Assembly: GCA_937983055.1 (NCBI GenBank) | Contig: CALJLA010000068.1 | Location: 784-64,783 of the forward strand | Direction: 5' to 3' | Length of the DNA stretch: 64,000 nucleotides | Source: an uncultured Pseudomonadota bacterium | GTDB lineage: Bacteria > Pseudomonadota > Gammaproteobacteria > Burkholderiales > Eutrophovitaceae | Shown here: positions 3,833 through 37,117 of the stretch, one piece after another | Layout: every line of letters begins with the position of its first letter | Position numbering within the stretch: the stretch's first letter is position 1 | The notes under the pieces: generated by a model | The model's database searches: none | Seen by the model: only the letters and a program-made list of their open reading frames with translations | What the model was told of the DNA's origin: nothing | Program-made: the position numbers and the translations under genes

Positions 3833-3865
3833 ACCGTACGACCTGTACCCAACTGTCAGGTCAAG
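3833..3865 (-). promoter_or_regulatory. MerR-type promoter/operator (TTGACC-N20-TACGGT) facing the gap operon
   Basis: The reverse complement reads CTTGACCTGACAGTTGGGTACAGGTCGTACGGT, with a 20-bp spacer and the dyad GACCTG-N11-CAGGTC. It is an exact inverted copy of the site at 3909-3937. Confidence 0.55.
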
Positions 3866-3908
3866 GCCCGGTGCTCGACGAGGATCGGGCGTCGTTCGAC
3901 CGCGTCGG

Positions 3909-3941
3909 CTTGACCTGACAGTTGGGTACAGGTCGTAGTCT
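3909..3941 (+). promoter_or_regulatory. MerR-type promoter/operator (TTGACC-N20-TAGTCT) facing the SDR-HMBD operon
   Basis: CTTGACCTGACAGTTGGGTACAGGTCGTAGTCT, located 59 bp upstream of the ATG at 4000. It has the same dyad as 3837-3865. Confidence 0.55.
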
Positions 3942-3999
3942 TCCCCGTTTAGCCATCGACGCTTGGCGCTCGATGTCGTTCTGGACCAGGGGATTCAAT

Positions 4000-5331
4000 A
4001 TGCCATCGCATACCGGCGCAGTCTTGATTACGGGCGCCAACGGCCGCATCGGCTCCGCCGTCATGAAGCGTCTTCGCCAACAATTCAGTGACGTGGTGGG
4101 CTTTGATCGACAAGCGTCGTCGCCGCCGCCGGCGGACTGTGTCTTCATACCGGTCGACATCACCTCGGACGCCGACGTGGAGGAGGGTCTTCGGACGCTC
4201 GGCGAGCACCATGGCCGTCGGATCGCGTCGGTGATTCACCTGGCGGCGTACTATGACTTTTTGGGCCGCGCGAGCCCAAAGTACGATGCGATTACCGTCG
4301 AGGGTACGCGACGCCTGTTGCGCGGCTTGAAGTCGTTCGAGGTCGAGCAGTTCATTTTTTCCAGCACCATGTTGGTGCACGCGCCGGGCGAACCCGGGGA
4401 GTTCATCAACGAAGATTGGCCCATTGGGCCAACCTGGGCCTACCCGGAATCCAAGGTGTGCACGGAAGCGGTGATCCATGAAGAGCGGGGCAGTATTCCT
4501 GCGGTGATCCTGCGGCTGGCCGGCGTGTACGACGATGTGTGTCATTCGCCGCCACTGGCGCACCAGATTCAGCGCATCTACGAGCGACAACTGGCCGGTC
4601 ACCTGTACTCCGGCGAGACCTCGCACGGCCAGGCATTCGTTCACCTCGACGACGTCGTGGACGCCATCGAGGCGGCGGTGATGCGACGATCGGAGCTGCC
4701 CGCCGAGGTCCCCATACTCATCGGTGAGCCGGATACGCTGAGCTACGACGAGCTGCAGCACACCTTCATGCGCCTGATCCATGGCAAGTCGTCGGAAACA
4801 CACAATGTGCCCGGGCTCATCGCCAAGGTCGGCGCCTGGCTTCAGAACCTGATGCCCGGCAAGAAACCGTTCATCAAACCCTGGATGATCGATCGCGCCA
4901 ACGACCACTACGCGCTCGACATCACGCGAGCTCGTTCATTGCTGGATTGGCTGCCCAAGCATACGCTGCGGCAAACCCTGCCGAGGATGGTTGCTGCCCT
5001 GCAGGCCGATCCGATCGCCTGGTATCGCGAGCACGGCCTCGAGCCGAGCACCGCCGTCAGAGAACAGGCGCGGCAGGCCGCGCCGGAACCCGTCGCCACA
5101 GCGGCAATCGACCGCAAAAAGCCGCACAGCTGCCCGCTGCACCCGGGAGTTTGTCAATCATCGCCCGGCAATTGTCCGCGTTGCGGGACGGCACTCGAAC
5201 CGCTTGGCGCGCCAGCGACTGCGTATAGCTGCCCCATGCATCCCGAGGTCGTGAGCAAGGAACCCGGTCGCTGCCCGAAGTGCGGCATGCCGCTGGAACG
5301 ATGTGACATCCCGGAGGAAGGCCATGCATGA
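4000..5331 (+). CDS. NAD(P)-dependent epimerase/dehydratase-family SDR fused to two C-terminal heavy-metal-binding (HMBD) zinc-ribbon-like motifs
   Basis: TGANGRIG Rossmann motif and YPESK catalytic YxxxK. The C-terminus carries [24 protein letters not shown] and [24 protein letters not shown]. The start was set at the ATG at 4000. Confidence 0.75.
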
Positions 5332-6913
5332 CCATCATGCCGGGCACGGACACACCACGGCGGCAGACTCCGCTGACGAGTACACCTGCCCCATGCACCC
5401 GGAGGTGGTGCAGAACGAACCGGGGGACTGTCCGAAATGCGGCATGACCCTGGTGTTGCGCGATTCGGCCAAACCGGCGGCTGGACACGGCGACATGATG
5501 GTCGAGAGCCACCGCAATATGCTCTGGCCGCATTATCTCAACCTGATGCTCGGCCTCTGGTTGCTGTTGAGCCCGTTCACGCTCGGTTACATGAGCGATT
5601 TCGTGCCCGATGCCAAGCAGCTCTGGGTTATGGCCGATCGCGGATTGCCGCCGTTCGAGCTGCGCAATCTGTGGATGACCTGGAGCGATGTGATCAGCGG
5701 CATCCTGGTCATCGTCTTCAGCGTCCTGTCAGCCGATGCCTGGCGGCGCAATCCCTGGGCGCAATGGGCCAACGCCTTCGTCGGCGTGTGGCTGTTGTTG
5801 GCGCCGCTGGTGTTCTGGACACCCCTGCCTGAGGCCTATGCCAACGGTACCCTGGTCGGCGGTCTGGTCATCGCGCTCTCGGTGCTCATCCCGATGATGC
5901 CGGGGATGAGCATGGCCGGCATGATGGGCAAGCCGGATGTGCCGCCGGGCTGGGCCTACACGCCGTCGAGCTGGTTGCAGCGCATGCCGATTGGTGTACT
6001 CGCCCTGATTGGCTTTCTTATCGCGCGCGTGCTCGGCGCCTATCAGCTCGGCCACATCGATACCGTCTGGGAGCCGTTTTTCGCCGGTGTCGGCGAGAAC
6101 AAGGACGTGATGAACGGCACCGAGTCCATCATCACCTCGGACGTCTCCAAGGCCTGGCCGATCGCCGACGGCGCGCTGGGCGCTATCGTCTACACGCTCG
6201 AACTGGCCATGACCTGGATGGCCGGCAAGGACCGCTGGCGCACCATGCCCTGGATGGTGCTCGGGCTGGCAGTGCTGATCGTACCGCTGGGCGTGGTCAG
6301 CATCTATTTCATTATCATCCAGCCGATCGATATCGGTACCTGGTGCACGTTGTGCCTGATTGCCGCACTGGCGATGGCGGTGATGATTCCGTATTCGCTC
6401 AACGAGTTCGTCGCCATGGGACAGTTCCTGGTCTGGTCGCGCAGGCAGGGCAAGCCGTTCTGGCGCACCTTCTGGACCGGCGACGCCATGGACGGCGGTA
6501 GCGACGATGATGCCAGGGGGCTTGTAGCCAGCCCGCGGGAGCAATGGGCGCAGGCCACGCGCGGCGTGACCTATCCCTGGACCTTGAATCTCAGCATCGG
6601 CATCGGTGTCTGGCTCACGTTCACGCGCCTGACCTTCGGCAATGCGGGCGCCATGGCCAATAGCGATCACCTGATCGGTGCGCTGGTGGTGACGTTCTCG
6701 ATCATGGCCTGGGCCGAGGTCGGACGCGCGGTGCGCTTCATCAACGTGCCCTTCGGCGCATGGTTGATCGCCGCGCCCTGGTTGCTCGACGGCGCAGGGT
6801 CGTCACTGGCTGCCTGGAACGGCGTTATTGCCGGCATACTGCTCATCGTGCTGGCCATCCCTCGAGGCACGATCAAGGAGTCTTACGCAGGCTGGGATCG
6901 GCACATTGTCTAG
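5324..6913 (+). CDS. membrane protein: N-terminal HMBD + SPW-repeat-like segments + VKOR-like core
   Basis: [24 protein letters not shown] is followed by [14 protein letters not shown] and [13 protein letters not shown] (SPW-like). A polytopic core carries WCTLCLIAA (CxxC in a TM helix, as in VKOR). A GGAGGAAG RBS lies before the ATG at 5324, and there is an 8-nt overlap with the upstream gene. Confidence 0.65.
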
Positions 6914-7036
6914 CGTCGACGGCTCCGGTACCGGCGTCCGGCTCGAACGCAAGTGTCTGGCCAGTCTCCCCGAACCGTTAACGCGCCGGCACTCAAGGCC
7001 GGGGCGGCGCCCGGATTCAGCAAAGGAGGATCCACA

Positions 7037-8047
7037 ATGCAACTAGGAATGTTTGGTCTGGGGCGCATGGGCAGCAACATGGTGCGGCGGCTCATGAACG
7101 ACGGGCACGAGTGCGTGGTCTACAACCGCAGCGAAGGCGCCGTTCGACAGCTGCAAAGCGAAGGCGCACTTGGGGTGTTTTCGCTCGAGGAACTGATTGT
7201 CCGCCTGGAGCGCCCCCGCCGCATCTGGTTGATGATTCCGGCTGCCGTCGTCGATGACGTTCTGGCGCGCCTGGTGCCGTTGCTCGACAGCGACGACATC
7301 GTGATCGACGGCGGCAACTCGAATTACCGCGACGATATACGCCGCGGTACCGAACTCGGACAGCAAGGTGTTCATTATCTCGACGTCGGCACCAGCGGCG
7401 GGGTGGCCGGGCTGGAACGCGGCTACTGCCTGATGATCGGCGGCGACACGGACGTCGTCTCGCAGCTCAGCCCGATTTTCGCAAGCCTCGCGCCGGGTGT
7501 CGCGGCGGCAACGAAGACCCCGGGCCGAGGCCCGGGCACGGCGGAGCAGGGCTATCTGCACTGCGGTCCGCACGGCGCAGGGCATTTCGTCAAGATGGTG
7601 CACAACGGCATCGAGTACGGCGTGATGCAGTCCTATGCGGAAGGCTTCAACATTTTGCGCAACGCCAATATCGGCAAGCGCCAGCACGATGTCGATGCTG
7701 AGACCGCGCCAACGCAGGATCCGGCACATTACGCCTACGACTTCGACCTGGCAGAGATCGCCGAGTTGTGGCGCCGCGGCAGCGTTATCGCCTCCTGGCT
7801 GCTCGATCTCACGGCGGCCGCGCTGTTGCGTGATCCGGCCTTGCAGCGTTACGCGGGCCGGGTTTCGGACTCCGGCGAAGGCCGCTGGACCATCACTGCG
7901 GCGATCGAAGAAGGCGTTCCGGCGCCCGTGTTGAGTGCGGCGCTTTATGCCCGGTTCAGCTCACGCGGTGAGGCGGAGTTCGCAAACCAGGTGCTCTCGG
8001 CAATGCGCGAGGGCTTTGGCGGTCACGTCGAAAAGCCGGACGATTGA
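7037..8047 (+). CDS. gnd: 6-phosphogluconate dehydrogenase, decarboxylating (short form)
   Basis: MQLGMFGLGRMGSNMVRRL NAD(P)-binding N-terminus, with YLDVGTSGG and HFVKMVHNGIEYG motifs. An AAAGGAGGA RBS lies upstream. Confidence 0.85.
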   Translation: MQLGMFGLGRMGSNMVRRLMNDGHECVVYNRSEGAVRQLQSEGALGVFSLEELIVRLERPRRIWLMIPAAVVDDVLARLVPLLDSDDIVIDGGNSNYRDDIRRGTELGQQGVHYLDVGTSGGVAGLERGYCLMIGGDTDVVSQLSPIFASLAPGVAAATKTPGRGPGTAEQGYLHCGPHGAGHFVKMVHNGIEYGVMQSYAEGFNILRNANIGKRQHDVDAETAPTQDPAHYAYDFDLAEIAELWRRGSVIASWLLDLTAAALLRDPALQRYAGRVSDSGEGRWTITAAIEEGVPAPVLSAALYARFSSRGEAEFANQVLSAMREGFGGHVEKPDD

Positions 8048-8049
8048 GC

Positions 8050-9432
8050 ATGGACACCCACGACGCCGATGCACTGGTCATATTCGGGGTCACCGGCGAC
8101 CTGGCGTACAAGAAGATCTTTCCGGCCCTGCAGGCGTTGTTCGAGCGCGGCGATCTGAGCCTGCCCGTCGTCGGCGTGGCACGGGGCGGCTGGACCCTGG
8201 AGCGGCTGCGCGAGCGGGTGCGGGCGAGCCTTCGGGAGCATGGCAGCGTCGATGCTGACGCGTTCGCGCGCCTGTCGGCGCAACTGCGCTACGTCGACGG
8301 CGACTATCGCGATCCAGCCACCTACGACCGACTGAAGCAGGCACTGCACGACAGCCAGCGGCCACTGCACTACCTGGCGATCGCGCCGGGGATGTTCGAG
8401 ACCGTGGTGCGGGGGCTGGCGAGCGCCGACTGTTCCCGCCACGCACGCGTCGTGGTCGAGAAGCCGTTTGGCCGCGACCTGGCCTCAGCCCGTGCGCTCA
8501 ACCGCACGCTGCATCAGGTATTCCCGGAAACCGCGGTGTTTCGCATCGATCATTACCTGGGCAAGGAGGCGGTTCAAAACCTGTTGTACTTCCGCTTTGC
8601 CAACACCTTCCTCGAGCCGATTTGGAATCAGCATCACGTCGCTGCTATTCACGTGACCATGGCCGAACGGTTCGGCGTGCAGGGTCGTGGCAAATTTTAC
8701 GAGGAGGTGGGCGCCATTCGCGACGTGGTGCAAAACCACCTGCTGCAGGTCATCGCGCTGCTGACGATGGATGCGCCGACGGGTCGCGATCCGCAAGCGA
8801 CGCGCGCGGAGAAGCTGCGCATTTTGCGTGCGATGCGGCCGGTCGATCCCTCGCAGCTCGTGCGCGGGCAATATCGTGGCTATCGTGACGAGCCCGGCGT
8901 CGCGGGCGACTCCGACGTTGAGACCTTCGCCGCATTTCGCTTGTACATCGACACCTGGCGCTGGTCCGGTGTGCCGATCGTGGTGCGTACCGGCAAATGC
9001 CTGCCGCTGACGGTCACGGAGGTGATCGTGCAGCTGTGCCAGCCGCCGCTCGCCATTTTCGATCCAGTCACGCCGGCAGCGGCAAACTACTTTCGCTTCC
9101 GCTTGAGCCCGGAGGTCGTCATCGCGGCCGGCACGCGCGTCAAGCAACCGGGGGACACCATGCGGGGCGAAGCCGCGGAGTTGATCGCCCGTCACGCACG
9201 CGCCGGGGCCGACCTGCCCTATGAACGGCTATTACGCGATGCCATCCGCGGTGACCCGGCACTGTTTACCCAGGACGAAAGCGTGGAGGCGGCCTGGCAG
9301 GTCGTCGAACCGATGCTCAGGGCGGGTGTGTCGGTAACGGAGTACGAGCCGGACACCTGGGGACCGACCAGGCTGGCGCCACAACCGGAGGGATGGCGAA
9401 ATCCCGAAGCGGAGGCGAGCAAACCGTGTTAA
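8050..9432 (+). CDS. zwf: glucose-6-phosphate 1-dehydrogenase
   Basis: IFGVTGDLAYKKIFPAL and RIDHYLGKE signature motifs. The start overlaps or abuts the gnd stop. Confidence 0.9.
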   Translation: MDTHDADALVIFGVTGDLAYKKIFPALQALFERGDLSLPVVGVARGGWTLERLRERVRASLREHGSVDADAFARLSAQLRYVDGDYRDPATYDRLKQALHDSQRPLHYLAIAPGMFETVVRGLASADCSRHARVVVEKPFGRDLASARALNRTLHQVFPETAVFRIDHYLGKEAVQNLLYFRFANTFLEPIWNQHHVAAIHVTMAERFGVQGRGKFYEEVGAIRDVVQNHLLQVIALLTMDAPTGRDPQATRAEKLRILRAMRPVDPSQLVRGQYRGYRDEPGVAGDSDVETFAAFRLYIDTWRWSGVPIVVRTGKCLPLTVTEVIVQLCQPPLAIFDPVTPAAANYFRFRLSPEVVIAAGTRVKQPGDTMRGEAAELIARHARAGADLPYERLLRDAIRGDPALFTQDESVEAAWQVVEPMLRAGVSVTEYEPDTWGPTRLAPQPEGWRNPEAEASKPC

Positions 9433-9507
9433 TCACGAAGACACAACACGCGCGGGCTCGGGTTCGCGGCCGGCGTGGGTAAGCGGTAGTTGAGTTAAGG
9501 AGTCAAG

Positions 9508-9672
9508 ATGGACTGGCTGGCAGAGAATTGGTTTTGGGTGCTGATCGGTATTGTGTTTGTCGCGATGCACCTGTTCGGACATGGTGGCCATGGTGGCCGC
9601 GGCGGGCATGCCGGTCACGGCGGCTCGCGGGATGCTGAGCGCGGCGATCAGAAGCAGCAACACCGGCATTGA
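9508..9672 (+). CDS. small membrane/His-rich peptide, DUF2933-like
   Basis: 54-aa ORF below the ORF-track cutoff: MDWLAENWFWVLIGIVFVAMHLFGHGGHGGRGGHAGHGGSRD.... An AAGGAG RBS sits 6 nt upstream. It lies immediately 5' of a P1B ATPase, which is the usual DUF2933 context. Confidence 0.5.
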   Translation: MDWLAENWFWVLIGIVFVAMHLFGHGGHGGRGGHAGHGGSRDAERGDQKQQHRH

Positions 9673-9690
9673 CCGGTCAACGGGACAATC

Positions 9691-12060
9691 ATGAGCAAAT
9701 CTACTATTGAAGTCGCGGGACTGCTGTCCGCGTCAAGCGCGGCCGGCGTCGAAAAGCAATTGATGCGACTGCGCGGCGTACGCAAAGCCGAAGTCAATTA
9801 TGTGGCTGGCAGCGCGACCGTCACCTACGACGAAAACGTCATCGATCTCGCGGCAATCAAGGCACAAATTCATGCCTGCGGGTACCACTGCCGGGGGGAG
9901 ATGGTGCCGAAACACATCTGCGCCCCGGCCAATCCGGCCGACGGGCCAACGGCTGCGGTCGCCGATCATCCGGCAACCCATCATCATGACACGCACGCTG
10001 CGCCCGAAGCACAAGGCGACGAGACGGCGGGCATGGCGCACGAAATGGGCCACGGTGGCGGGATGGACATGCAGGCCATGGTGCGCGATATGCGCAAGCG
10101 CTTCTGGGTCTGTTTGGCGTTCACCGTGCCGATCTTCATTTACTCGCCGATGGGGGGGCTGTTCACACCGCCAGCGCCGCCCTTCGGCCTGGACCTCAAC
10201 CTGTGGCTTTTCTTGTTGGCCAGTATCGCGGTCATCTGGCCAAGCTGGCCATTCTTCGTGGCCGCCTGGCGGGCGCTGAAAAACGGTGTCCTCAACATGG
10301 CGGTGCTGGTGGTGCTGTCGGTCGGTACCGGCTACTTGTTCAGTCTCGGGGCGACGTTTTTTTTCGACGGTGTGCAATTCTTCGAGGCGGTGGCGGTACT
10401 GCTGGTGTTCATCCTGCTCGGGCACTGGTTGGAGATGCGCGCTCGCGCCGGCGCCTCCGATGCGATTCGCTCTCTGATGGATCTCGCGCCGCCCAAGGCC
10501 ACCGTGCTGCGCGATGGCCGGGAACTGGAGATACCGACGGCGGAGGTGGCCAAAGACGACATCGTCGTGATCCGGCCCGGCAACAAGATCCCGGTGGACG
10601 GCGAGGTGCTCGAAGGCGAATCCCAGGTGGATGAGTCCATGCTCACCGGCGAATCCATGCCGGTCGGCAAGAAGCCCGGCGACACGGTGATCGGCGCCAC
10701 GATCAACAAAAGCGGCAGTTTCAAGTACCAGGCGACCAAGGTGGGCGCCGATACCGCCCTGGCACAGATCGTCAAGCTGGTACAGGAAGCACAGAACTCC
10801 AAGGCCCCCGCCCAGTTGCTGGCGGACAAAGCCTCGCAATGGCTGGTGGTGATCGCGATTGTCATTGGTCTGCTGACGTTTGCGGCCTGGTTCTGGTGGC
10901 TCGGTCAGACCTTGCTGTTTGCCGTCACTCTTACGATCACGGTATTCGTCATCGCCTGCCCGGATGCTCTGGGCCTCGCCACACCCATGGCGGTGATGGT
11001 AGGCACGGGCCTTGGTGCGAAGAACGGCATTCTGTTCAAGAATGCTTCCGCCCTCGAAGAGGCCACCAAGCTCGATATCGTCGTTTGCGACAAGACCGGT
11101 ACGTTGACCATGGGTGAACCGCAAGTCGTGGAGGTCGTCGCCGGCGATGCCGGCGAGGATGCCGTTCTTAGCCTCGCCGCCACCGTGGAACAAGGCTCGG
11201 ACCATCCACTGGCCCAGGCCATTCAGCGTCGCGCCGAGGGACTCACGCTCTCGCCGCTGCGTGGCTTTGAGAACATTGAGGGCAAGGGTGCGCGCGCCGA
11301 GGTGGACGGTCAAACCGTGTTCCTCGGTAATCGGCGTTTGATGGACGAGGAGGGTGTTGACCTGGCAAGCCTCGCAGACGAGGCGGCTCGCCTGCAGGGC
11401 GCCGGTCAGACCGTGGTGCACATTGCCCACGGCGGCCGCCTGGTGGGACTGATCGCGATCGCCGATGCGCCACGACCGACGGCGGCAGCGATGGTGGCAA
11501 AAATGCGCGAGCGGGGTGTGGAGGTTGCCATGCTCACCGGCGACAATCAGGCGACCGCCGAGCGTATTGCGGGGGAACTCGGTATACAGACGGTGATAGC
11601 CGACGTGTTACCCGCGCAAAAAGCCGACAAGATCAAGGAACTGCAAGCGCAAGGCAAGAAGGTCGGGATGGTCGGCGACGGCGTCAACGATGCGCCAGCA
11701 TTGACCCAGGCGGAGGTTGGATTCGCGATCGGCGCCGGTACCGACGTTGCCATGGAAAGCGCTGACGTCGTGCTCATGAAAAGCGATCCCTATGACGTGC
11801 TTGGCGCTATCGAACTGTCGCGTGCCACGCTGCGCAAGATGCACCAGAATTTGTTCTGGGCGGTGGCGTACAACGTGATTGCCTTTCCGGCGGCGGCTGG
11901 GGTTTTCTATCCACTGGTGATCAGTCCTGAAGTGGCGGCACTTGCGATGTCGGGCAGCTCGGCGTTGGTGGCAGTGAACGCGTTGCTGCTGAAACGCACG
12001 CGCCTGGAGGGCATCCGAACCGTGCGGTCCGCTACCAGCATAGATCCGCAAAGCGACTGA
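9691..12060 (+). CDS. heavy-metal P1B-type ATPase, CopB-like (His-rich N-terminus, CPD transmembrane motif)
   Basis: [15 protein letters not shown], YNxxxxP and MSGSS motifs. The TM motif reads [12 protein letters not shown]. The N-terminal HMA-like fold has SASS in place of CxxC and is followed by a His/Met-rich stretch. Confidence 0.9.
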
Positions 12061-12090: not shown

Positions 12091-12122
12091 TTGACGTGTG
12101 TCGGACATACACGTTGTAGAGT
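12091..12122 (+). promoter_or_regulatory. candidate MerR-type promoter (TTGACG-N20-TAGAGT) with ACGTGT/ACACGT dyad
   Basis: TTGACGTGTGTCGGACATACACGTTGTAGAGT lies between the ATPase stop and pgm. It has a long spacer and a dyad ACGTGT-N9-ACACGT. Confidence 0.4.
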
Positions 12123-12281: not shown

Positions 12282-13997
12282 GTGAGTGGCGTCGCCGAGT
12301 CAGCCACAGACACGAGCGTAGTCGCAGGGAAACCCGCGTCACGCGAGATGCTGATTGACGTATCGAAGCTCGTAGAGGCGTACCACGCCGAGCGGCCCAA
12401 TCCTCGTGTTGCGGCCGAACGAGTCGCGTTCGGGACGTCGGGCCACCGGGGTTCGGCGCTTTCCAGGAGTTTCAACCAGAACCACATTCTCGCCATCAGC
12501 CAGGCCATTTGTGACTACCGACGGACACAGGAGTTCGACGGGCCACTGTTTATTGGCATGGACACCCATGCCCAGTCCGAGCCAGCGTTTGCCACGGCGC
12601 TCGAGGTGCTGGCGGCGAATGGCGTCCAGGCTATGATCGCCGGCGACGAAAAATACACTCCTACGCCCGCCATCTCTCACGCTATCTTGCAGTACAATCG
12701 CACCGGCCCAGCAGGTCTGGCCGACGGCATCGTCATTACCCCATCACACAACCCGCCCGACAGCGGCGGCTTCAAGTACAACCCACCGACCGGCGGACCG
12801 GCGAACACGTCAGTGACGGACTGGATCGAAGCCAGGGCCAACGAGCTGTTGCAACAGGACCTGGTCGGCGTGCAGCGGATGCCGATCGAAAAGGCGCTGC
12901 GTGTCAGCACAACCCATCGCTACGATTACCTCAATACCTATGTCAACGACCTCGATCAGGTCGTTGACATGGCAACAATCCGCGCCGCCGGGATCCGCAT
13001 CGGGGTCGACCCCCTGGGCGGCGCCGGGGTCAACTACTGGCCGGCAATTGCGGAGCGATATGGCCTGGATCTGGACGTCGTCAATGCGGTCGTGGACCCG
13101 ACCTTTAGTTTCATGACGCTGGATTGGGATGGGCAGATCCGTATGGACCCGTCGTCAGAGTACGCGATGCAACGGCTAATCGCGTTCAAGGACCACTACG
13201 ACGTTGCGCTCGGCTGCGATCCTGACCATGACCGGCACGGCATCGTCGTGCCGGATGAGGGTTTGATGCCGGCAAATCACTATCTGGCGGTTGCCATCGC
13301 CTATCTTTACCGTCACCGGCCGGGCTGGCGCTTCCCCGCAGCCGTGGGCAAAACCATCGTCAGCAGCCAGATGATTGACCGGGTGGCCGAGAGTGTCGAG
13401 CGGCGCGTCTATGAAGTGCCGGTCGGCTTCAAGTGGTTCGTGGCAGGCCTCAAGGATGGATCGCTGGGGTTTGCCGGCGAAGAGAGTGCCGGGGCGTCAT
13501 TCGCGCGACGTGACGGACACGTCTGGACCACGGACAAAGATGGCCTGGTGCCGGCGCTGCTCGCCGCCGAGATGACTGCGCGAAGGGGTCGAAACCCTGG
13601 CGAAGCCTATCGCGAACTGGTGCAGGCGTTCGGTGCTTGCGCCTACACCCGCATTGAAGCCCCGGCTACGGCCGCGGAGAAATCGATCATCGCCAACCTC
13701 ACAGCGGAACAGGTTCAAGCGACCGAGCTCGCCGGCACAGCTGTCGACGGCGTCCTGACCCGTGCGCCGGCCAACAACGCATCCATCGGCGGCTTGAAGG
13801 TTACGACGGCACAGGGCTGGTTTGCTGCGCGTCCGTCCGGCACAGAAGCCCTGTACAAAATCTACGCCGAGAGTTTTCGCAACACGGATCACCTGCAACG
13901 TATCGTCAACGAAGCACAACATCTGATTGGCGAAGTACTCGCAGCCGCCGCAGGGTCCGGCCCGTCGGCTGCGACATCGGCAAGGAAGGCCCCGTGA
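12282..13997 (+). CDS. pgm: phosphoglucomutase (alpha-D-glucose phosphate-specific)
   Basis: FGTSGHRGSA and TPSHNPPDSGGFKYN motifs. By recall it is collinear with E. coli Pgm along its whole length. Confidence 0.9.
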   Translation: MSGVAESATDTSVVAGKPASREMLIDVSKLVEAYHAERPNPRVAAERVAFGTSGHRGSALSRSFNQNHILAISQAICDYRRTQEFDGPLFIGMDTHAQSEPAFATALEVLAANGVQAMIAGDEKYTPTPAISHAILQYNRTGPAGLADGIVITPSHNPPDSGGFKYNPPTGGPANTSVTDWIEARANELLQQDLVGVQRMPIEKALRVSTTHRYDYLNTYVNDLDQVVDMATIRAAGIRIGVDPLGGAGVNYWPAIAERYGLDLDVVNAVVDPTFSFMTLDWDGQIRMDPSSEYAMQRLIAFKDHYDVALGCDPDHDRHGIVVPDEGLMPANHYLAVAIAYLYRHRPGWRFPAAVGKTIVSSQMIDRVAESVERRVYEVPVGFKWFVAGLKDGSLGFAGEESAGASFARRDGHVWTTDKDGLVPALLAAEMTARRGRNPGEAYRELVQAFGACAYTRIEAPATAAEKSIIANLTAEQVQATELAGTAVDGVLTRAPANNASIGGLKVTTAQGWFAARPSGTEALYKIYAESFRNTDHLQRIVNEAQHLIGEVLAAAAGSGPSAATSARKAP

Positions 13998-16540: not shown

Positions 16541-16574
16541 GCGCGGCAGGACAGACAAGAAGGGGCTACTGACA

Positions 16575-27445: not shown

Positions 27446-27476
27446 AGTCTAGCGGTGTATCCAAGGTACAGGTCAA
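27446..27476 (-). promoter_or_regulatory. candidate MerR-type promoter (TTGACC-N19-TAGACT)
   Basis: The reverse complement reads TTGACCTGTACCTTGGATACACCGCTAGACT, located 16 bp upstream of the ORF start at 27430. Confidence 0.35.
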
Positions 27477-27649: not shown

Positions 27650-28045
27650 ATGACCCTATTGGCCAGCATCAGACACCAGCATCGCTCGGCGGCCGTGCTC
27701 AGCGTGATGGTGCTGGCGTGGTTCGGAATCCTCGTCACGCCCTGTGCGACAACCTTCGCTGCGGTTGCACCGCCGGCGGAATTGGCGGCTGCCCCGCACG
27801 ATGACTGCCCGAATGCCGACGCGCAGGCGCCAATGTCCGAGGCGGATTGCTGTTGCGATCTGGGCGCCGTTCTGACAGCTCGAAAGCCAGAACTGCCCAA
27901 GCTCGACCTGAATTTGGCCCTACCGGTCGCACCTGATGTGCTGAGACCGGTGGTGTTGGTTGACGGCGCGCCTCCACTACCGACGACACTGCGACACAGA
28001 GCCGCACCGCCAGTCTATCTCTTGACGGAACGCCTGCGCATTTAG
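27650..28045 (+). CDS. exported Cys-rich protein (DUF2946/CopL-like), paralog A
   Basis: Signal-like N-terminus with DDCPNADAQAPMSEADCCCD. It resembles 45704-46129 in architecture. Confidence 0.5.
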   Translation: MTLLASIRHQHRSAAVLSVMVLAWFGILVTPCATTFAAVAPPAELAAAPHDDCPNADAQAPMSEADCCCDLGAVLTARKPELPKLDLNLALPVAPDVLRPVVLVDGAPPLPTTLRHRAAPPVYLLTERLRI

Positions 28046-28139: not shown

Positions 28140-28694
28140 ATGTCAACCCAATCCTTGTCGGCACCACCGTACGGCGCATTGCACGTTGCCGACGTTGCCA
28201 AACGCGCCAATGTAACCCCCGCGACCGTTCGCTATTACGCGCGGTCCAAGTTGTTAAGTCCAAGACGTGACCCGGAAAATGGCTATCGTTGTTTTTCATT
28301 GGCCGACGTACATCGCGTCGAGTTTATCCGCCAGGCGCAAGCGCTCGGACTTACGATTGGTGACATCAAGGGCATCCTCGAAACCGTGGATCGGGGTGCG
28401 ACGCCGTGTGACGAGGTCAAGTCGCTCGTCAAGCGGCGGCTTGAGCGCGTACAAACGCAGATCGCTGAATTGCAAGCAACGGAAGCCCGTATGACCAAGG
28501 CAGTCAGGCTGTGGCGGACCATGGACGAGCCGGTGCCGCAGGACGGGGAATACTGCCCCCTGATTGAGCGGGTCGAGGTCGAGATCTGCGGCAGTCCGGA
28601 TAGCGCCCGGCGTCAGACGCGCCGAAACCCACAACCAACCCCCTGTCATTGTCCACAGCCCAGCGAGGCGAGTCGACAGGCCTTGTCTGACTAG
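28140..28694 (+). CDS. MerR-family regulator, paralog 2
   Basis: HVADVAKRANVTPATVRYYARSKL HTH, with PCDEV, YCPLIERV and a Cys-containing tail (ICGSP, PCHCP). An AAGGAG RBS precedes the ATG at 28140. Confidence 0.8.
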   Translation: MSTQSLSAPPYGALHVADVAKRANVTPATVRYYARSKLLSPRRDPENGYRCFSLADVHRVEFIRQAQALGLTIGDIKGILETVDRGATPCDEVKSLVKRRLERVQTQIAELQATEARMTKAVRLWRTMDEPVPQDGEYCPLIERVEVEICGSPDSARRQTRRNPQPTPCHCPQPSEASRQALSD

Positions 28695-28699
28695 CACCC

Positions 28700-28759: not shown

Positions 28760-28791
28760 TTGACCTTGATGTTGGGTACAGGTTGCAGACT
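28760..28791 (+). promoter_or_regulatory. MerR-type promoter (TTGACC-N20-CAGACT) upstream of copAB
   Basis: TTGACCTTGATGTTGGGTACAGGTTGCAGACT matches the 37086 site at 29 of 32 positions. Confidence 0.55.
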
Positions 28792-29053
28792 GACGGCACG
28801 GTGATCTGCTAGGCCCACACGACTCAGGGATTCGACGTGACGGTGGAGTTCCCCCGCCACGGGTACGGTACGTCTATCGGAAAACCAATACGGGTCGGCG
28901 TATCCGTTGGTTTTTCGCAGCCGTCCTGAGGCGCCGGCGCAGCTGCGGACCGCGTCGGCGCGGCATGTATTGCGTCCGGATTCACTAATCTTACGGACCA
29001 CACCCCACCACGCCTTGCTGTTGATCTTGACGACACGACGAAAAAGGAGACTC

Positions 29054-30853
29054 ATGCCACAACAACACCGACCAGGACGTCGCCAATTCTTGAAAAGTGC
29101 CGGCGCAGCGGGCGTCGTATTGGCCTTTGATGCGTGGATACCCGCCTGGGCGAGAAACACGGCGGTCACGCGATCCGAACCCGCCGATGCGCAATCAGCA
29201 CTGGTCTTCGATCTGGCCATTCGCGAACAGGCGTTCGATATCGCCGGTGGTCGAGGCAATGCCATGACCATCAACGACAGTGTGCCGGGACCGCTACTGG
29301 AATGGTACGAAGGGCGGGACGTGGTGCTGAATGTCACCAATCACATGCGCCACTCCACGTCGATTCATTGGCACGGCATCCTGTTGCCGTTCGAGATGGA
29401 CGGTGTGCCGGGCGTCACCTTTCGCGGCATTGAGCCGGGCACCACGTTCCAGTATCGCTTTCCGGTCAAACAAAGCGGCACGTACTGGTACCACAGTCAT
29501 TCCGGCCTGCAGGAGCAGTCCGGTGTCTATGGCCCGCTGGTCGTACATCCGCAGACTGCGGATCCCATGCATTACGACCGCGACTACGTCGTAATGCTCT
29601 CGGACTGGACGTTCGAGGACCCGCATGACGTAATGGCCAAGCTCAAGAAAATGAGCGACTACTACAACTACCAGCAGTTCACGCTGACGGATTTGTATGG
29701 CAAGCCCCGAATGTCGCGAAGTGAGGCCTGGTCGCAGAAACTCGCCTGGGACCGCATGCGCATGATGCCGACGGACATTGCCGACATCACCGGCGCCACC
29801 TACACCTACCTGATGAACGGGTTGCATCCGGCTGGCAACTGGACTGGCCTTTTCGAGCACGGTGAGCGTGTGCGTCTGCGTTTCATCAATGGTTCGGCGA
29901 TGTCGTACTTCAACGTCCGCATCCCCGGACTGCCAATGACCGTGGTGGCCGCAGACGGCCAGAACGTCAAGCCCGTCGAGACCGATGAGTTTCAGATCGG
30001 GGTTGCCGAGACCTATGACGTCATTGTCGAGCCCGGAACCGACCAAGCTTATACCGTGATGGCGGAGTCCATGGATCGCAGCGGTTATGCCGCCGGCACT
30101 CTGGCGACCCGGCCCGGTCTTCGTGCCCCTGTTCCCCCGCTTCGCGAGCGACCGCTATTGACGATGGTGGACATGGGCATGGACATGGCGGACATGGACG
30201 GCATGGATCACGCCGCGATGGGTGCGATGAACAGCGCCGGCGGGAGTGGGCAGGATTCGAGCCACGGCATGGCCCACGGCGACCATGGCGCCGGCGCCAA
30301 CATGGTCATGCAAGGCTCGACCGGACCGATCATTGCGCGCCACGGACCGGATACCCACGGCCCGGGCAACATCAGTGTCGCCCAGGTGCAGCGCGACCGG
30401 CTCGGCGAACGCGGCACGGGCCTCGCCGAAGTCGAACACCGGGTGCTGGTCTACAACGACCTTAAACGACTGGACGATGACTATGACGATCGGCCACCGG
30501 CACGAGAAATCGAATTGCATCTGACAGGCCACATGGAGCGTTACATGTGGTCCTTCGACGGCAAGCAGTTCCACGAAGTGGACGGACCGATCGAGTTTCA
30601 CTACGGCGAGCGGCTGCGGCTGATCATGGTGAACGACACCATGATGAATCATCCGATTCATCTGCACGGCATGTGGATGGAGCTCGACAACGGGCACGGT
30701 CGGGAGATTCCGCGCAAGCACACCATCAATCTGATGCCGGCGGCTCGGGTCTCGGCCTTGATTACCGCCGATGCGCCGGGCCGTTGGGCGTTTCATTGTC
30801 ATCTGCTCTATCACATGGACATGGGTATGTTCCGTGTGGTCCGCGTCAGCTAG
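29054..30853 (+). CDS. copA: copper-resistance multicopper oxidase CopA/PcoA
   Basis: Tat signal RRQFLKSAGAAG; copper ligand motifs HWHG, HSH, HPIHLHGM and HCHLLYHMDMGM; and a Met/His-rich insert MVDMGMDMADMDGMDH. Confidence 0.9.
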   Translation: MPQQHRPGRRQFLKSAGAAGVVLAFDAWIPAWARNTAVTRSEPADAQSALVFDLAIREQAFDIAGGRGNAMTINDSVPGPLLEWYEGRDVVLNVTNHMRHSTSIHWHGILLPFEMDGVPGVTFRGIEPGTTFQYRFPVKQSGTYWYHSHSGLQEQSGVYGPLVVHPQTADPMHYDRDYVVMLSDWTFEDPHDVMAKLKKMSDYYNYQQFTLTDLYGKPRMSRSEAWSQKLAWDRMRMMPTDIADITGATYTYLMNGLHPAGNWTGLFEHGERVRLRFINGSAMSYFNVRIPGLPMTVVAADGQNVKPVETDEFQIGVAETYDVIVEPGTDQAYTVMAESMDRSGYAAGTLATRPGLRAPVPPLRERPLLTMVDMGMDMADMDGMDHAAMGAMNSAGGSGQDSSHGMAHGDHGAGANMVMQGSTGPIIARHGPDTHGPGNISVAQVQRDRLGERGTGLAEVEHRVLVYNDLKRLDDDYDDRPPAREIELHLTGHMERYMWSFDGKQFHEVDGPIEFHYGERLRLIMVNDTMMNHPIHLHGMWMELDNGHGREIPRKHTINLMPAARVSALITADAPGRWAFHCHLLYHMDMGMFRVVRVS

Positions 30854-30863
30854 GGAGGCCATC

Positions 30864-31604
30864 ATGAGACGACGACATCTATTGGCCGCCGCAGCGCTCC
30901 TCGCGAGCCCATGGGCGTGGGGCTACGAACCGGCCGGCACGCCCGAGGACTGGCCCAATCCGATTCCGGACCAGAAACCCTTCTGGATGGTCTTGAGCGA
31001 TCGTCTCGAGACGCGCTTTGCCGACGAGGTCGATACCTACGTCTGGGACTTGCAGGGGTGGTACGGCGGCGATTTCAATCGCCTGTGGATCAAGACCGAG
31101 GGCGAGGGTGAACAAGGCAAGTCGCCGGAAAGTGCTGAGCTGCAGGCACTCTTCAGCCGGCGATTCGCCCCGTTCTGGGACTGGCAGCTCGGCGTGCGTC
31201 ACGATTTCGAGCCGAATCCGTTCCGCAGCCATCTGGTACTCGGCCTACAGGGCGTCGTGCCCTACGAATTCGAATGGGACAGCGCGTTGTTCGTCAGCGA
31301 CGAAGGCGATGTCACGGCGCGCATTGAGGCAGAGTACGACCTCAGGATCACGCAGCGCCTGATCGTGCAGCCGCGCCTCGAACTGAATGCGGCGGGCTCC
31401 GACATTCCCGAACTGGGGCTCGGCAGCGGTCTCAACAGCACGGAGCTGGGTATTCGGTTGCGCTATGAGTTCAAGCGCGAATTCGCACCCTACATCGGTG
31501 TGTCCTGGGAAAAACTCTACGGCGATACCGCCGATTTCTCGCGACTCGACGGCGAACCGACGTCGGTGACGTCGCTGGTCATCGGCATTCGCGCTTGGTT
31601 TTAG
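30864..31604 (+). CDS. copB: copper-resistance protein B (outer membrane) CopB/PcoB
   Basis: Signal peptide, the REFAPYIGVSWEKLYGDTAD motif of the CopB family, and a C-terminal aromatic residue (AWF). Confidence 0.85.
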   Translation: MRRRHLLAAAALLASPWAWGYEPAGTPEDWPNPIPDQKPFWMVLSDRLETRFADEVDTYVWDLQGWYGGDFNRLWIKTEGEGEQGKSPESAELQALFSRRFAPFWDWQLGVRHDFEPNPFRSHLVLGLQGVVPYEFEWDSALFVSDEGDVTARIEAEYDLRITQRLIVQPRLELNAAGSDIPELGLGSGLNSTELGIRLRYEFKREFAPYIGVSWEKLYGDTADFSRLDGEPTSVTSLVIGIRAWF

Positions 31605-34126: not shown

Positions 34127-34552
34127 TCAATGTCGGGACTCTTCGGGCCACGCCGCGATCAATTTCGCAATGCCACGGCCTGTGGGCGCCCCTCGCGGCA
34201 ACGATTCCCATTCGTGAATGAAGCGCGTTAAGCGGTGCTCAACCCGTTTCAGCGCTCTTATTCTTTTTCGCAATGCGCCAAGACGTGCTTGAAACAACGC
34301 AACGATCTCCGGATGTGATACGCGAGATTTGTGTGCAGCCCTGATTATCGTCTGCACATCATTGATGGACATCCCCAGCGCGCGGGCGTCGCGGATGAAC
34401 AGCAGTTGGGTATAGTCCTCCTCGTTGAACAGTCTGTACGAGGATCGATGATCGCGAGTCGGCGTCAGAAGTCCCAATCGTGTGTAGTAGCGGACGGTTT
34501 CCGGTGAGACGTCCGCTCGTCGCGCAATATCGATGACGCGCATGTCGGTCAA
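34127..34552 (-). CDS. MerR-family regulator without cysteines
   Basis: IDIARRADVSPETVRYYTRLGLL HTH. The protein contains no Cys at all. Confidence 0.8.
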   Translation of the reverse strand: MTDMRVIDIARRADVSPETVRYYTRLGLLTPTRDHRSSYRLFNEEDYTQLLFIRDARALGMSINDVQTIIRAAHKSRVSHPEIVALFQARLGALRKRIRALKRVEHRLTRFIHEWESLPRGAPTGRGIAKLIAAWPEESRH

Positions 34553-34575: not shown

Positions 34576-34607
34576 ATCTTAAAAGGTATGTGCTGCATAT
34601 AGGTCAA
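34576..34607 (-). promoter_or_regulatory. candidate MerR-type promoter (TTGACC-N20-TAAGAT) with TATATGC-A-GCACATA dyad
   Basis: The reverse complement reads TTGACCTATATGCAGCACATACCTTTTAAGAT, about 24 bp upstream of the MerR start. Confidence 0.35.
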
Positions 34608-34641
34608 TCATTGTCCAGGACATCACGCGGCTAGGCAGCGC

Positions 34642-35445
34642 CTAGGGTTGATCGTCAACGATGACGACGGACTTCGGCCGGTCGGTCGAAAACAGCGCCG
34701 ACGGCGCAAAACCGAACATGCGGCGAAACGCGTGACTCATATGCGCAGAATCCGAGAATCATGCGGCATGAGCCGCCTCGGTCAGACTGGAACCCTTGAG
34801 CGCGTCTTCTATGACGGCCCGCAATCGCGACCAAACGATGAAACGGCGAACCGGTACACCCAAATCGCGCTTGAACAAGTGGCGCAAGCGGCTGGGTGAC
34901 AGACTGACAAGGTCCGCAAGCTCTTGACCGGTGTAGGTCCGATGGGGTTGGCTGCGAATCCGTTCGACCACGGTTTGGATGCGGGCATCCGTGAGGATCG
35001 ATTGGTGATGTGTGCTGAGGCGGAGTGCCGATGCGCATACCGACCACGCGCGGTCAGCATCGACTTGACGATCTATCAGCGACCGGAGCGTGTCACATGC
35101 ACTGGTGGTCAACGAGAGGGGCTGCACCGTGTGCGCCGCGTCCTTCAGTGGATAGTCGTCGCTTTCAGGTTCCCAATACAACGCCAGAATACGTGCGCTG
35201 CCGGAGTCGAGTTGGTGCGGATGGTCCGGCGGGATAAGGACGCCCAAACCGGTTGACCAGCGCGAATGCGAATCGGTACGGTAACGAAGCGGTTCACCCA
35301 ACGAGACGCACAGTTGCGCCGCGTGATGACTGTGTACATCGTTGTCCGGACTCAACCCTAGATAAAGGGCACGGTGAGACCACAGGTAGAGACGAAAGGC
35401 GGGCGGGGCTGTCATCGTGCGCGCAGCCTTGCCTGCGACAGACAC
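34642..35445 (-). pseudogene. AraC-family regulator interrupted by one in-frame TGA in the second HTH
   Basis: The ORF stops at ...LTEAAHAA(TGA). The same frame then continues FSDSAHMSHAFRRMFGFAPSALF... to TAG at 34642-34644. The stop sits where AraC proteins carry the conserved Gly of GFxDxSHF. Confidence 0.7.
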
Positions 35446-35518
35446 CGCTATTCACCGGCTGCCGTCAAGCTCGAGGACGTCACCACAATGTGATCAAGAC
35501 CGGTCAACACGGCCCCCG

Positions 35519-36772
35519 TCAGTCAAATAACGCGATTGGAAAGGCCGCCGTGTTGACGGTAGAGTCATCCTCCGAGGTGTCGGTCCAGGCGAACACGAGA
35601 CGATCACCGTGGCGCACCATTTGTGGAAACCCCGACGGCCGTGCGGCGCTGGTTTCAGCGATCACTTGCAGATCACCCAGGTCGCCGTCGCGGGATATTG
35701 ACCGCGCGACCACCTCGCCTTGACCACGCGCGTCTTTGCGCAGCCAGCTGACCACGGCCTGGTTATCGGCTAGGAACTCAACGTCCACGCGCCCAATGGG
35801 CTGCTCGACATCGAGATCGATGGGCGCGGAGAAGGTGGCCCCACCGTCCGTTGAACGGGCCATACGTACTTGAGCGGCGTTGTTGGCGGCGGTAAACCAC
35901 GCAACGGCCACCGCGTCCCCGTTAGCGGTAATCGCCGGCCCGTTGACCGGACAACCGCTGATATCCCAGCCATCGTCGGCCACGGGCATGCCGGTTTGCC
36001 AGCTCCCGTCGACGTACCGCGCGACATAGATATCGCGGATTTCGTCCTGGGTCCGATTCCGGTAGACGGTGACCGGCCCGTCTGCGGTCATGGCTATGTC
36101 CGTTTGGCAGCAGTCGCACACCAGTTCATCGATCAGTTGGGGCTGAGTGACCACGGCAGCCGGTGTGATCAGGGCAGAGCGCAAGGTCATTCCGCCTGCC
36201 TGGGTGCCGTGGCCACCTTCGGTCATGTTGCGCCCGTCCAGCCAGATCGCACCGACGCCGTCCTCCCAGGGGAAAAGGCTCACGAAACCGTGCTCGGTGG
36301 CGGTGTCATCATCATGAGGCGTGATGGATTGATTCCAGGACCGACCCCCATCGTTGGAGAGGGCAACGGCGACATCGTACGCGTAGCTGCCACCGGGTCG
36401 CTTGACCAGCCAGTGGGCTGCCCAGAAATCGCGTGAAACGGGCGTCACGGACGGAAAGTCGGCCCAATTGACGAACCAGTTCGCGCCTTGTGCCACCGTC
36501 CGGGCAGGACCCCATTGATCATCGGCGAGGATGGAATAGCGTAGTGCATGCTCGTCCCCCTCGGGTTCCAGCCAGCTCAGGACCAAGGTGTTGGCATCGG
36601 GGCTGTGCGCGAGGTGCGGTTCTGCGCTGCCGGGACCGGCCGGCGATGCGATGACCGTGACGGCCGGCGGTTCGCTGCAAGCGGTCAACGTATGGGCGGT
36701 AACAAGCAACCCAAGCATTAGGCTCCAGGTAGGTTGGCAGTCTGCCTGGGCCAGGGGTCTGTTTTTTCTCAT
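35519..36772 (-). CDS. BNR/Asp-box repeat (exo-alpha-sialidase-like) lipoprotein
   Basis: Lipobox LTAC and Asp-boxes SNDGGRSW and STDGGATF. Confidence 0.7.
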   Translation of the reverse strand: MRKNRPLAQADCQPTWSLMLGLLVTAHTLTACSEPPAVTVIASPAGPGSAEPHLAHSPDANTLVLSWLEPEGDEHALRYSILADDQWGPARTVAQGANWFVNWADFPSVTPVSRDFWAAHWLVKRPGGSYAYDVAVALSNDGGRSWNQSITPHDDDTATEHGFVSLFPWEDGVGAIWLDGRNMTEGGHGTQAGGMTLRSALITPAAVVTQPQLIDELVCDCCQTDIAMTADGPVTVYRNRTQDEIRDIYVARYVDGSWQTGMPVADDGWDISGCPVNGPAITANGDAVAVAWFTAANNAAQVRMARSTDGGATFSAPIDLDVEQPIGRVDVEFLADNQAVVSWLRKDARGQGEVVARSISRDGDLGDLQVIAETSAARPSGFPQMVRHGDRLVFAWTDTSEDDSTVNTAAFPIALFD

Positions 36773-37085
36773 AAGGGTCTGGCTCTAAGGACTGGGATCG
36801 CGGTCATTTAGCAGGATCACGTCCAGCATACAAGACATTAGCGACGGCGTGGGGCGCTCAGCGTCGCGCGGTTCTTCAGACTCGACGAGGCGGAGGTTGC
36901 TGCAGCAGTGGCGAACTGACGTCACCTGGCCCGTGTTCACCGGTACCCCGCCGGCGAGATTGCCCGTATGGCGAGCGTGTTCGAGCACGACGACATTGAA
37001 CTCGGGACCAGTGCGTTACTCCCAGAACGGTCGGCGCGGTTCAGTATTGCATGGGTCGGCACCAGTTGTCGGGTTATGCCAAAGT

Positions 37086-37117
37086 TTGACCTTGATGCGG
37101 GGTACAGGTTGTAGGCT
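37086..37117 (+). promoter_or_regulatory. MerR-type promoter (TTGACC-N20-TAGGCT)
   Basis: TTGACCTTGATGCGGGGTACAGGTTGTAGGCT. About 297 nt of leader lie before the cytochrome c ATG. Confidence 0.55.

Follow-up and report, generated by a model that had tools for sequence, protein, structure and literature searches.

A 64,000-nt stretch of DNA from an uncultured gammaproteobacterium (GenBank assembly GCA_937983055.1, contig CALJLA010000068.1; hereafter the window, whose positions serve as coordinates throughout) carries ten copies of a 32-nt promoter-operator unit that precede genes for metal handling, central carbon metabolism and the cell envelope. These ten sites are probably sigma-70 promoters of the MerR type, governed by a clade of two-cysteine MerR-family regulators encoded in the same gene island and responding to a soft metal. 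An initial annotation had listed eight of the sites as dyad operators, GACCTK-N11-CAGGTY, lying inside promoters with 19/20-bp spacers and forming one MerR regulon; that observation is confirmed and extended here, and its interpretation is, at the level of comparative genomics, largely supported. All eight sequences are present exactly where they had been placed and on the strands assigned to them, all are intergenic and oriented toward the downstream gene, and two further sites, at 12091..12122 (+) and 34576..34607 (-), raise the count from "at least eight" to ten.

Alignment of the sites with their flanks defines a common architecture, in which a TTGACY -35 element is followed by a spacer and a TAnnnT or CAnnnT -10 element. 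The hexamers are sigma-70-like and the spacer is supra-optimal, 20 bp at nine sites and 19 bp at site 6 (the eight original sites are numbered in their order along the window), and the alignment thus confirms the MerR-type layout. Outside the 32-nt unit the flanking sequence is unrelated between sites (flank alignment of eight sites). The full operator can be idealised as a 21-bp dyad, ACCTGTACC-N3-GGTACAGGT, which begins at the fourth base of the -35 TTGACC, in the same register as a CueR-type box at 41601. Perfect palindromes of this form occur in the related contigs L071, L097/L106 and L100 and, together with the enrichment of the dyad in the window, they place a dyad operator within the spacer, overlapping the -35. 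The consensus of 19 sites reads TTGACCTg..tGc.gggTACAGGT.GtA.a.T, with the promoter-proximal half-site and the -35 hexamer its most constrained parts. The CueR-type box at 41601 (TTGACCTTCCCATAAGGGGAAGGTT-TATCGT, 19-bp spacer) is a different element, as had been proposed: in the new operator GTACC replaces TCC and one extra base precedes the -10, giving a 20-bp spacer. Gene-specific variants of the operator are kept across genomes, namely CATACAGGTC at the HMA gene, GCAGGTT at cfa, ACATACACGT at the glycogen phosphorylase (GlgP)/phosphoglucomutase (PGM) genes, and GGGTACAGGT with a CAnnnT -10 at hflK. Two contigs of 47% GC, L100 (6090-6121) and L183 (1132-1163), carry the palindrome ACCTGTACC-TTG-GGTACAGGT in a 19-bp-spacer promoter before a MerR-family gene that is unrelated to the island clade (~30% identical to the island regulators MerR_A and MerR_B), and the half-site may not be exclusive to a single MerR lineage.

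The motif is far more frequent in the window than expected by chance. Compared with shuffled controls within the window, a check that the initial annotation had itself suggested, GACCTK-N11-CAGGTY is strongly enriched, with 13 strand matches at no more than one mismatch vs 0.89 expected, a number that 0 of 100 shuffles reach. The pattern TTGACYT-N10-TRCAS, which includes the -35, has 10 matches vs 1.08 expected, and there are four exact copies of the 17-base core TTGACCT-N7-GGGTACAGGT vs 0.00 expected. For the idealised dyad there are six matches at 13/18 positions or better (1.05 expected) and five at 14/18 or better (0.12 expected), all within the non-coding 13% of the window, outside gene calls. 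A 32-nt weight matrix built from 11 sites of other genomes only, on which the scores of the ten sites are given below, returns exactly ten matches at 8 bits or above (0.48 expected). These are the ten sites, with scores of 25 bits or more for nine of them, compared with 17.7 bits for the best of 100 random sequences; the site at 12091 (+), ninth to be recognised, was first found by weight matrix. The other-genome sites were themselves found with a window-derived matrix, so that this test is only partly independent; its independent element is the placement of those sites at orthologous promoters. Across 596 Gb of genomes, the same 17 specified bases at shifted spacing (N8 for N7) gave 58 single matches in unrelated phyla, none of which carries the real motif, and we judge this to be chance level.

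As the initial annotation had it, the sites precede metal, carbon and envelope genes. Site 7 (28760..28791, +; 44.0 bits) lies 66 bp past the merR_B stop codon and 5' of copA, encoding a multicopper oxidase, and copB (28907..31604, +). Site 8 (37086..37117, +; 38.7 bits) lies ~300 bp 5' of the genes for cytochrome c (ATG 37415) and a DUF302 protein; an open reading frame (ORF) overlapping it (36849-37214, 121 aa) was rejected as spurious, having no family match and being unlike the 120-aa gene at the corresponding place in contig L007. Site 3 (17297..17328, +; 28.4 bits) is 5' of a CopZ-like HMA protein (17383-17634, +; ATG 17383), which has a terminal CCCG motif besides its GMTCSGC metal site. 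Site 2 (3910..3941, +; 26.3 bits), the divergent twin of site 1, precedes an operon at 4000..12060 (+) that encodes a short-chain dehydrogenase-type (SDR) protein fused to a heavy-metal-binding domain (SDR-HMBD), an HMBD-VKOR-SPW protein, 6-phosphogluconate dehydrogenase (gnd), glucose-6-phosphate dehydrogenase (zwf), a small His-rich ORF (9508-9672) and a P1B ATPase; no promoter is visible in the gap between zwf and the ATPase gene. The ATPase (9691-12060, +) has CPD in place of CPC in its transmembrane metal site and an N-terminal HMA fold without CxxC followed by a His/Met-rich stretch, with the copper-type YN and MxxSS motifs kept, and the ORF ahead of it (+ strand) encodes a 54-aa His/Gly-rich membrane protein.

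Carbon genes stand behind three sites, which extends the carbon group of the initial annotation (type II GAPDH, gnd and zwf) by PGM and GlgP. Site 1 (3833..3864, -; TTGACCtgacagttgggtacaggtcgTACGGT; 27.7 bits) is 5' of an operon at 57..3757 (-) for type II GAPDH, a CxxCH membrane protein, a lycopene-cyclase-domain protein and an esterase, whose gene order is kept in contig L171. The GAPDH (2702-3757, -) is a type II (archaeal-type) phosphorylating enzyme by its match to NF003251 (430 bits vs a cut-off of 185). We also note that the GAPDH is archaeal-type in a gammaproteobacterial island and that the membrane protein encoded after it (1922-2680) has a CxxCH haem-binding motif. The added site at 12091..12122 (+), of variant sequence TTGACGtgtgtcggacatacacgttgTAGAGT and 25.8 bits, precedes an operon at 12282..17252 (+) for phosphoglucomutase, a DUF3417-type glycogen phosphorylase and an ICMT-like methyltransferase, with its order kept in L001 and L004. 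Taken with the gnd and zwf genes behind site 2, GlgP, PGM, Zwf and Gnd would constitute a complete route from glycogen to ribulose-5-phosphate yielding two NADPH.

The envelope targets are cfa, for cyclopropane fatty-acyl phospholipid synthase (ATG 18318), behind site 4 (18201..18232, +; 29.5 bits), and hflK-hflC (24885..26830, +; ATG 24885), behind site 5 (24781..24812, +; 31.9 bits), whose -10 is CACAAT. Site 6 (27446..27476, -; 11.9 bits), 5' of a gene for a 152-aa hypothetical protein without a family match and divergent from the hyp131-merR_B unit, is the weakest: only in the left half, ACCTGTACC, is the match perfect, the right half being degenerate, the dyad score is 14/18, and no ortholog was found to support the site. 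The second added site (34576..34607, -; TTGACCtatatgcagcacataccttttAAGAT; 31.7 bits) has a 20-bp spacer and lies 32 nt 5' of the ATG of a third regulator gene, merR_C. The distance from the -10 to the likely start codon (with a ribosome-binding site) is 32-85 nt for gapII, SDR-HMBD, HMA, cfa, hflK and the 152-aa gene and is longer for PGM, copA and cytochrome c.

To follow the sites beyond the window we compared contigs that encode orthologs of MerR_B, 62-75% identical, and these retain the neighbouring genes as well as the sites. Weight-matrix scanning of these related contigs, a step also suggested at the outset, places sites at orthologous hflKC, cfa, HMA, copAB, cytochrome c, gapII/SDR-HMBD and GlgP promoters. 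In L001 (GCA_942490655.1; MerR_B 62% identical) sites stand 5' of GlgP, where the variant is the same as in the window, and of HMA, cfa and hflK. L004, a Wenzhouxiangellaceae metagenome-assembled genome (MAG) (74%), has one site 5' of HMA and another past merR_B; L005 (64%) has one 5' of hflK, and L007 (64%) has sites 5' of cfa and hflK and a divergent pair 5' of copA. The hflK site is found in L001, L005, L007, L070, L084, L137 and L170, the HMA site in L001 and L004, the cfa site in L001 and L007, the copA-associated site 7 in L004 and L007, and the cytochrome c site in L070, there 76 bp 5' of the gene. The divergent gapII/SDR-HMBD pair is present in L171, and alignment of the window with L171 shows both sites as almost perfectly conserved blocks in an otherwise diverged spacer with large indels.

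A scan of a metagenome collection with the 17-base core, from which identical 32-mers were removed, left 90 distinct matches. Sixteen of these have a -10 at 20 bp, and 12 of the 16 lie on contigs with homologs of island genes, as against 3 of the 74 without such a -10 (Fisher p = 2.6e-9). The metagenome contigs also yield additional sites for which the pattern had not selected; sites there accompany HMBD-ATPases (L133, L138), a CusC-like outer-membrane protein (L097/L106) and a cfa-like gene (L182), while L071 carries copB with the site directed away from the gene and L087 carries DUF302 with the gene upstream of the site. The operator wiring appears, from these comparisons, to be confined to a sub-lineage related to Wenzhouxiangellaceae and Woeseia-like MAGs. 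Megablast of 27.4-32 kb against a plasmid collection gave only a 76% match, in the multicopper oxidase gene of a Novosphingobium plasmid, so that the island is not a known plasmid.

The candidate regulators are encoded among the sites. MerR_A (22192..22746, +) and MerR_B (28140..28694, +) are two-cysteine MerR-family paralogs, 54% identical to each other and with nearly identical helix-turn-helix and wing (TPATVRYYAR vs TPAAVRYYAR); merR_A adjoins the divergent cusRS genes and lies 5' of genes for an AidB-like dehydrogenase and HflKC, and merR_B, whose product has a C-terminal CHCP tail shared by B-type members, stands directly 5' of site 7. A third paralog, MerR_C (34127..34543, -), is 35% identical to MerR_B without gaps. 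All three carry PF00376, PF13411 and PF09278 domains, and a gene of the clade lies directly 5' of a site at six or more loci, not only in the window (site 7) but also in L001, L004, L007, L137 and L170. The proteins at 22192 and 28140, which the initial annotation had put forward, are the predicted natural regulators. In the intergenic DNA between cusR and merR_A, a palindrome, CATTACGACATTGTAATG (21905-21925, +), resembles a CopR/CusR-type box for the divergent cusRS operon.

MerR_A and MerR_B can be aligned over their full length with the structurally solved MerR and CadR. Among 26 family members only two cysteines are conserved, Cys139 (in GE-x-CPLIE), which is invariant, and Cys90, which is nearly so; in the alignment with Bacillus MerR (4ua1) they correspond to the first and third Hg ligands, and the middle ligand is missing. 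The proteins score 58-62 bits on the CueR model (TIGR02044, cut-off 147.4) and, where CueR has Ser at position 77 and a Cys112/Cys120 loop, they have Cys at the residue-77 equivalent and a loop with one Cys. On the ZntR models (TIGR02043 / PRK09514) they reach 82-90 bits vs 143-168, with only two conserved cysteines against a Cys79/Cys114/Cys115/His119/Cys124 site. The mercury MerR model (TIGR02051) gives 80-83 bits vs 150.85, and of its three Hg-binding cysteines (79/82, 114/117, 123/126) the middle one is absent across the family. Scores are 65-68 bits vs 151.45 for CadR/PbrR (TIGR02047; Cys77/Cys112/Cys119 site) and 37-46 bits vs 116.9 for SoxR (TIGR01950), whose CX2CXCX5C [2Fe-2S] cysteine cluster is lacking. 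By these comparisons, the regulators form a distinct two-cysteine clade in the metal-sensor branch of the MerR family, outside the CueR, ZntR, MerR, CadR and SoxR equivalogs.

Two further proteins accompany the sensors. In MerR_C the two sensor cysteines are replaced by His and Ala, its own promoter carries the 31.7-bit site described above, and it scores 34 bits vs a MerD cut-off of 104. Directly 5' of merR_B lies a gene (27650..28045, +) for a small, Cys-rich protein with an N-terminal hydrophobic segment, here called the DCCCD protein, which occupies the same place before merR_B-type genes at every locus examined (L001 9508-9906, L004 9514-9906, L005 313-720, L007 9511-9909, L184 9426-9911) and is mostly uncalled as a gene in those assemblies. 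Its DCCCD motif is almost invariant, its C-terminus has the motif PPVYLxTQRLRI, and a scan at E up to 1 matched it to no Pfam family. A truncated B-type MerR paralog is also encoded at 41203-41529 (+), 63% identical to MerR_B residues 80-183; it keeps the CPLIE motif and a CHC tail, has no DNA-binding domain, and lies directly 5' of the CueR-type box at 41601 and a second CopA-type ATPase gene (41878-44286). No intact CueR gene is evident beside that box.

Because a dyad in an over-long spacer occurs together with an adjacent MerR-family gene, we infer the activation mechanism of the MerR family for these promoters. Dimers of MerR_A and MerR_B most likely bind the 21-bp dyad. By analogy with the family, the unliganded dimer would keep the promoter in a poor conformation, and the liganded dimer would untwist and kink the over-long spacer such that both hexamers become usable for RNA polymerase; the regulator would sit on the DNA in either state. 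The signal is most likely a soft thiophilic metal. The presence of CopA/CopB, the CopZ-like protein, the P1B ATPases and the neighbouring cusRS suggests copper or silver, and a divalent soft metal would also be possible; sensing would take place at the dimer interface, between Cys90 and Cys139 of opposite subunits. The putative output has three arms: a metal arm (the P1B ATPase, the CopZ-like protein, the CopA oxidase with CopB, and cytochrome c with DUF302), a carbon arm (glycogen to NADPH through GlgP, PGM, Zwf and Gnd, together with the alternative archaeal-type GAPDH) and an envelope and proteostasis arm (Cfa, HflKC and the VKOR-type thiol oxidoreductase). Binding and co-induction of these targets are both predicted from the sites. 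More speculatively, MerR_C may be induced as a signal-blind competitor that resets the system, as MerD does in mer operons.

This functional mix is physiologically coherent for copper stress, because copper induces the same mix in E. coli, where copA/cusF, SoxRS genes including zwf, envelope-stress genes and hflK/hflC belong to separate regulons (PMC13618251). Several observations nevertheless weigh against control of the ten sites by metal-sensing two-cysteine regulators. The clade falls below every NCBIfam metal-regulator cut-off and lacks the middle Cys of MerR, ZntR and CadR; metal sensing is for these reasons not assured. A cysteine at the residue 77/79 equivalent is typical of divalent-ion sensors such as ZntR and not of Cu(I) sensors such as CueR, and it fits the copper-type targets poorly. 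A separate CueR-type box already serves the second CopA ATPase in the window, each of the three paralogs could bind, and the conserved operator variants may mean sub-regulons. At more distant loci with MerR homologs (L184-L186) only one moderate site each was found; in L185 and L186 the first dyad scan returned nothing, and the matrix gave one moderate match each (24.6 and 28.6 bits). Lastly, a search of the distant SDR-HMBD loci L187-L189 for the operator found no site.

The last of these points concerns the gene module as much as the operator. The SDR-HMBD/HMBD-VKOR pair, which in the window spans 4000-6913 (+) with its SPW-bearing form, is widespread, with 5006 homologs at E<=1e-30 that are ~70% identical across alpha-, beta- and gammaproteobacteria, among them the distant counterparts in L187, L188 and L189. 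In L188 (a Nevskiales MAG) and L189 (a 7.4-Mb genome) the pair clusters with glycogen phosphorylase, a lycopene-cyclase-domain protein and phosphoketolase, joined in L188 by HflKC, G6PD, PEP synthase and PFOR and in L189 by a universal stress protein (Usp). Since L188 and L189 have this gene cluster without the operator, the module is older and wider than the MerR wiring, and since the module occurs without the operator in L187-L189, gene clustering alone is no proof of MerR control. FNR/Anr-type control of the wider module in L188 and L189 was considered and dropped, as a search there found no TTGAT-N4-ATCAA boxes. In L184 (GCA_021773115.1), a 32-bit site with a 20-bp spacer (2108-2139) lies ~90 bp 5' of nqrA, the first gene of a Na+-NQR operon, 8 kb from the more distant homolog of the MerR clade.

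One alternative divides the sites among two or three overlapping regulons, and we regard it as a real possibility though short of probable. Here MerR_A, MerR_B and MerR_C would each take a subset of operator variants in response to different signals: GGGTACAGGT at gap/SDR, hflK, copA and cytochrome c, CATACAGGTC or GCAGGTT at HMA and cfa, and ACATACACGT at PGM/GlgP. Such a division would account for the retention of each gene's variant across genomes and for the arrangement in L001, in which a 165-aa paralog precedes HMA and cfa and a 184-aa B-type paralog precedes hflKC, as well as for the constant neighbours of the two types, A always adjoining cusRS and B always following the DCCCD protein. 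However, with a helix-turn-helix and wing so nearly identical in MerR_A and MerR_B, discrimination between such similar operators is not obvious, and the variants could equally grade affinity for one regulator. Of the "one MerR regulon" that was first proposed, the shared operator stands, and the single regulon is no more than a possible reading, given two near-identical sensors, a cysteine-less third paralog with a site in its own promoter, and conserved gene-specific variants. The most unitary version, in which the two-cysteine clade is a single master switch on soft-metal/thiol stress that co-activates the metal, glycogen-to-NADPH/GAPDH and membrane/proteostasis genes, with MerR_C as a MerD-like off switch and the DCCCD protein as a sensor partner, is a tentative and on the whole doubtful proposal.

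The main rival to a soft metal as signal is thiol stress. With the same architecture and the same regulators, thiol-oxidative or electrophile stress could activate the dimer through a Cys90-Cys139 intersubunit disulfide or through modification of these residues, the only two conserved cysteines, which would face each other at the dimer interface. Many of the targets are also those of an oxidative-stress response, including zwf and gnd for NADPH, a replacement GAPDH, a VKOR-type oxidoreductase, cfa and hflKC, and an AidB-like dehydrogenase gene adjoins merR_A; SoxR, a redox sensor of the MerR family, ultimately induces zwf in E. coli (PMC13618251). We nonetheless consider this signal unlikely, as the core targets include copA/copB, the CopZ-like protein and P1B ATPases, joined elsewhere by a CusC-like protein and HMBD-ATPases, the CHCP tail of the B-type paralogs suggests metal binding, and metal sensors are the closest sequence relatives. 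The description of the regulator as "metal-type" in the initial annotation accordingly draws support from homology and target genes, but with two of the three MerR cysteines it leaves room for a thiol or redox signal. Finally, it is very improbable that the sites are non-regulatory copies of a promoter cassette or small mobile repeat, duplicated within an island gained by horizontal transfer, or that an alternative sigma factor recognises them. In favour of this view, sites 1 and 2 share 28 identical bases, the ~70% identity of SDR-HMBD across distant taxa gives the island the look of a horizontally mobile one, and an ECF sigma gene lies at 50567; but similarity ends at the 32-nt site, sites persist at orthologous promoters despite diverged spacers, the shifted-spacing pattern gave only scattered single matches, and the variable dyad centre, kept arms and perfect palindromes point to a dimeric DNA-binding protein and not a sigma factor.

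Returning to soft-metal control by the two-cysteine clade, one of the closest parallels is CueR, the Cu(I)/Ag(I)/Au(I) sensor, at PcopA/PcueO, where a MerR-family dimer likewise uses a 21-bp dyad, ACCT...AGGT, from the fourth base of TTGACC, and where a copper ATPase and a multicopper oxidase are likewise among the targets. In contrast to CueR, the island operator has GTACC for TCC in the inner half-site and a 20-bp rather than a 19-bp spacer, the regulon is far broader, and the proteins have Cys instead of Ser at the residue-77 equivalent and no first loop cysteine. The island regulators have their best NCBIfam match in ZntR and share with it a Cys where the dimerisation helix begins. The spacer of PzntA is likewise 20 bp, and CadR/PbrR operators have a 9-3-9 dyad geometry; the island system differs from both in its single metal-loop Cys and its operator sequence, and from ZntA/CadA systems in having copper-type and metabolic targets in place of a single pump. 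Bacillus MerR (4ua1) is the closest solved structure, with YCPLIE aligned to ECPIIE and the Cys79 equivalent kept, although the further Hg ligand (Cys114/117) is absent here and there are no mer genes. MerR_C, sensor-dead and expressed from a promoter that itself carries the operator, resembles MerD, an induced co-regulator; a MerD-like role for it is hypothetical. The control of zwf by SoxR-SoxS is a further parallel in concept.

Metal sensors of the MerR family are the textbook case of a narrow regulon, each sensor controlling a single efflux or detoxification gene or a few of them. In the present case one shared operator stands directly before genes of central carbon metabolism, membrane lipid modification and HflKC, a modulator of FtsH, in several uncultured gammaproteobacterial lineages. 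The E. coli copper stimulon shows the same functional mix and, unlike the island with its one shared MerR-type operator, reaches it through separate sensors in four separate regulons, CueR, CusRS, SoxRS and Cpx/RpoH (PMC13618251). If our reading is correct, metabolic compensation (NADPH supply and replacement of poisoned enzymes) and envelope repair would be hard-wired into a metal/thiol sensor. The regulators would also constitute a new clade of sensors, whose unusual two-cysteine site would bear on metal-selectivity rules and on biosensor design, and SDR-HMBD, HMBD-VKOR-SPW, the DCCCD protein and the CPD-motif ATPase would gain functional handles.

Among mobile elements, the TLPQC/locus of heat resistance of Pseudomonas aeruginosa clone C and enterobacteria is a transmissible island led by a MerR-like regulator and encoding FtsH, cardiolipin synthase and thioredoxin (PMC7685784). 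Its likeness to the present island lies in this leading MerR-like regulator with membrane and proteostasis functions; it differs in its sHsp and ClpG, in its association with heat stress, in lacking metal and sugar genes, and in that no such shared dyad operator has been described for it. In the literature that we searched, we found no description of the operator or of a MerR regulon with hflK, cfa, zwf, glycogen phosphorylase or VKOR. Further along the window, the stretch 46777-58274 (+) stays with the metal theme. Its genes encode an efflux protein of the outer membrane, another multicopper oxidase (the second, with two domains), an ECF sigma factor accompanied by both a FecR-like protein and a TonB-dependent receptor, and proteins of the PepSY/ferric-reductase-like type.

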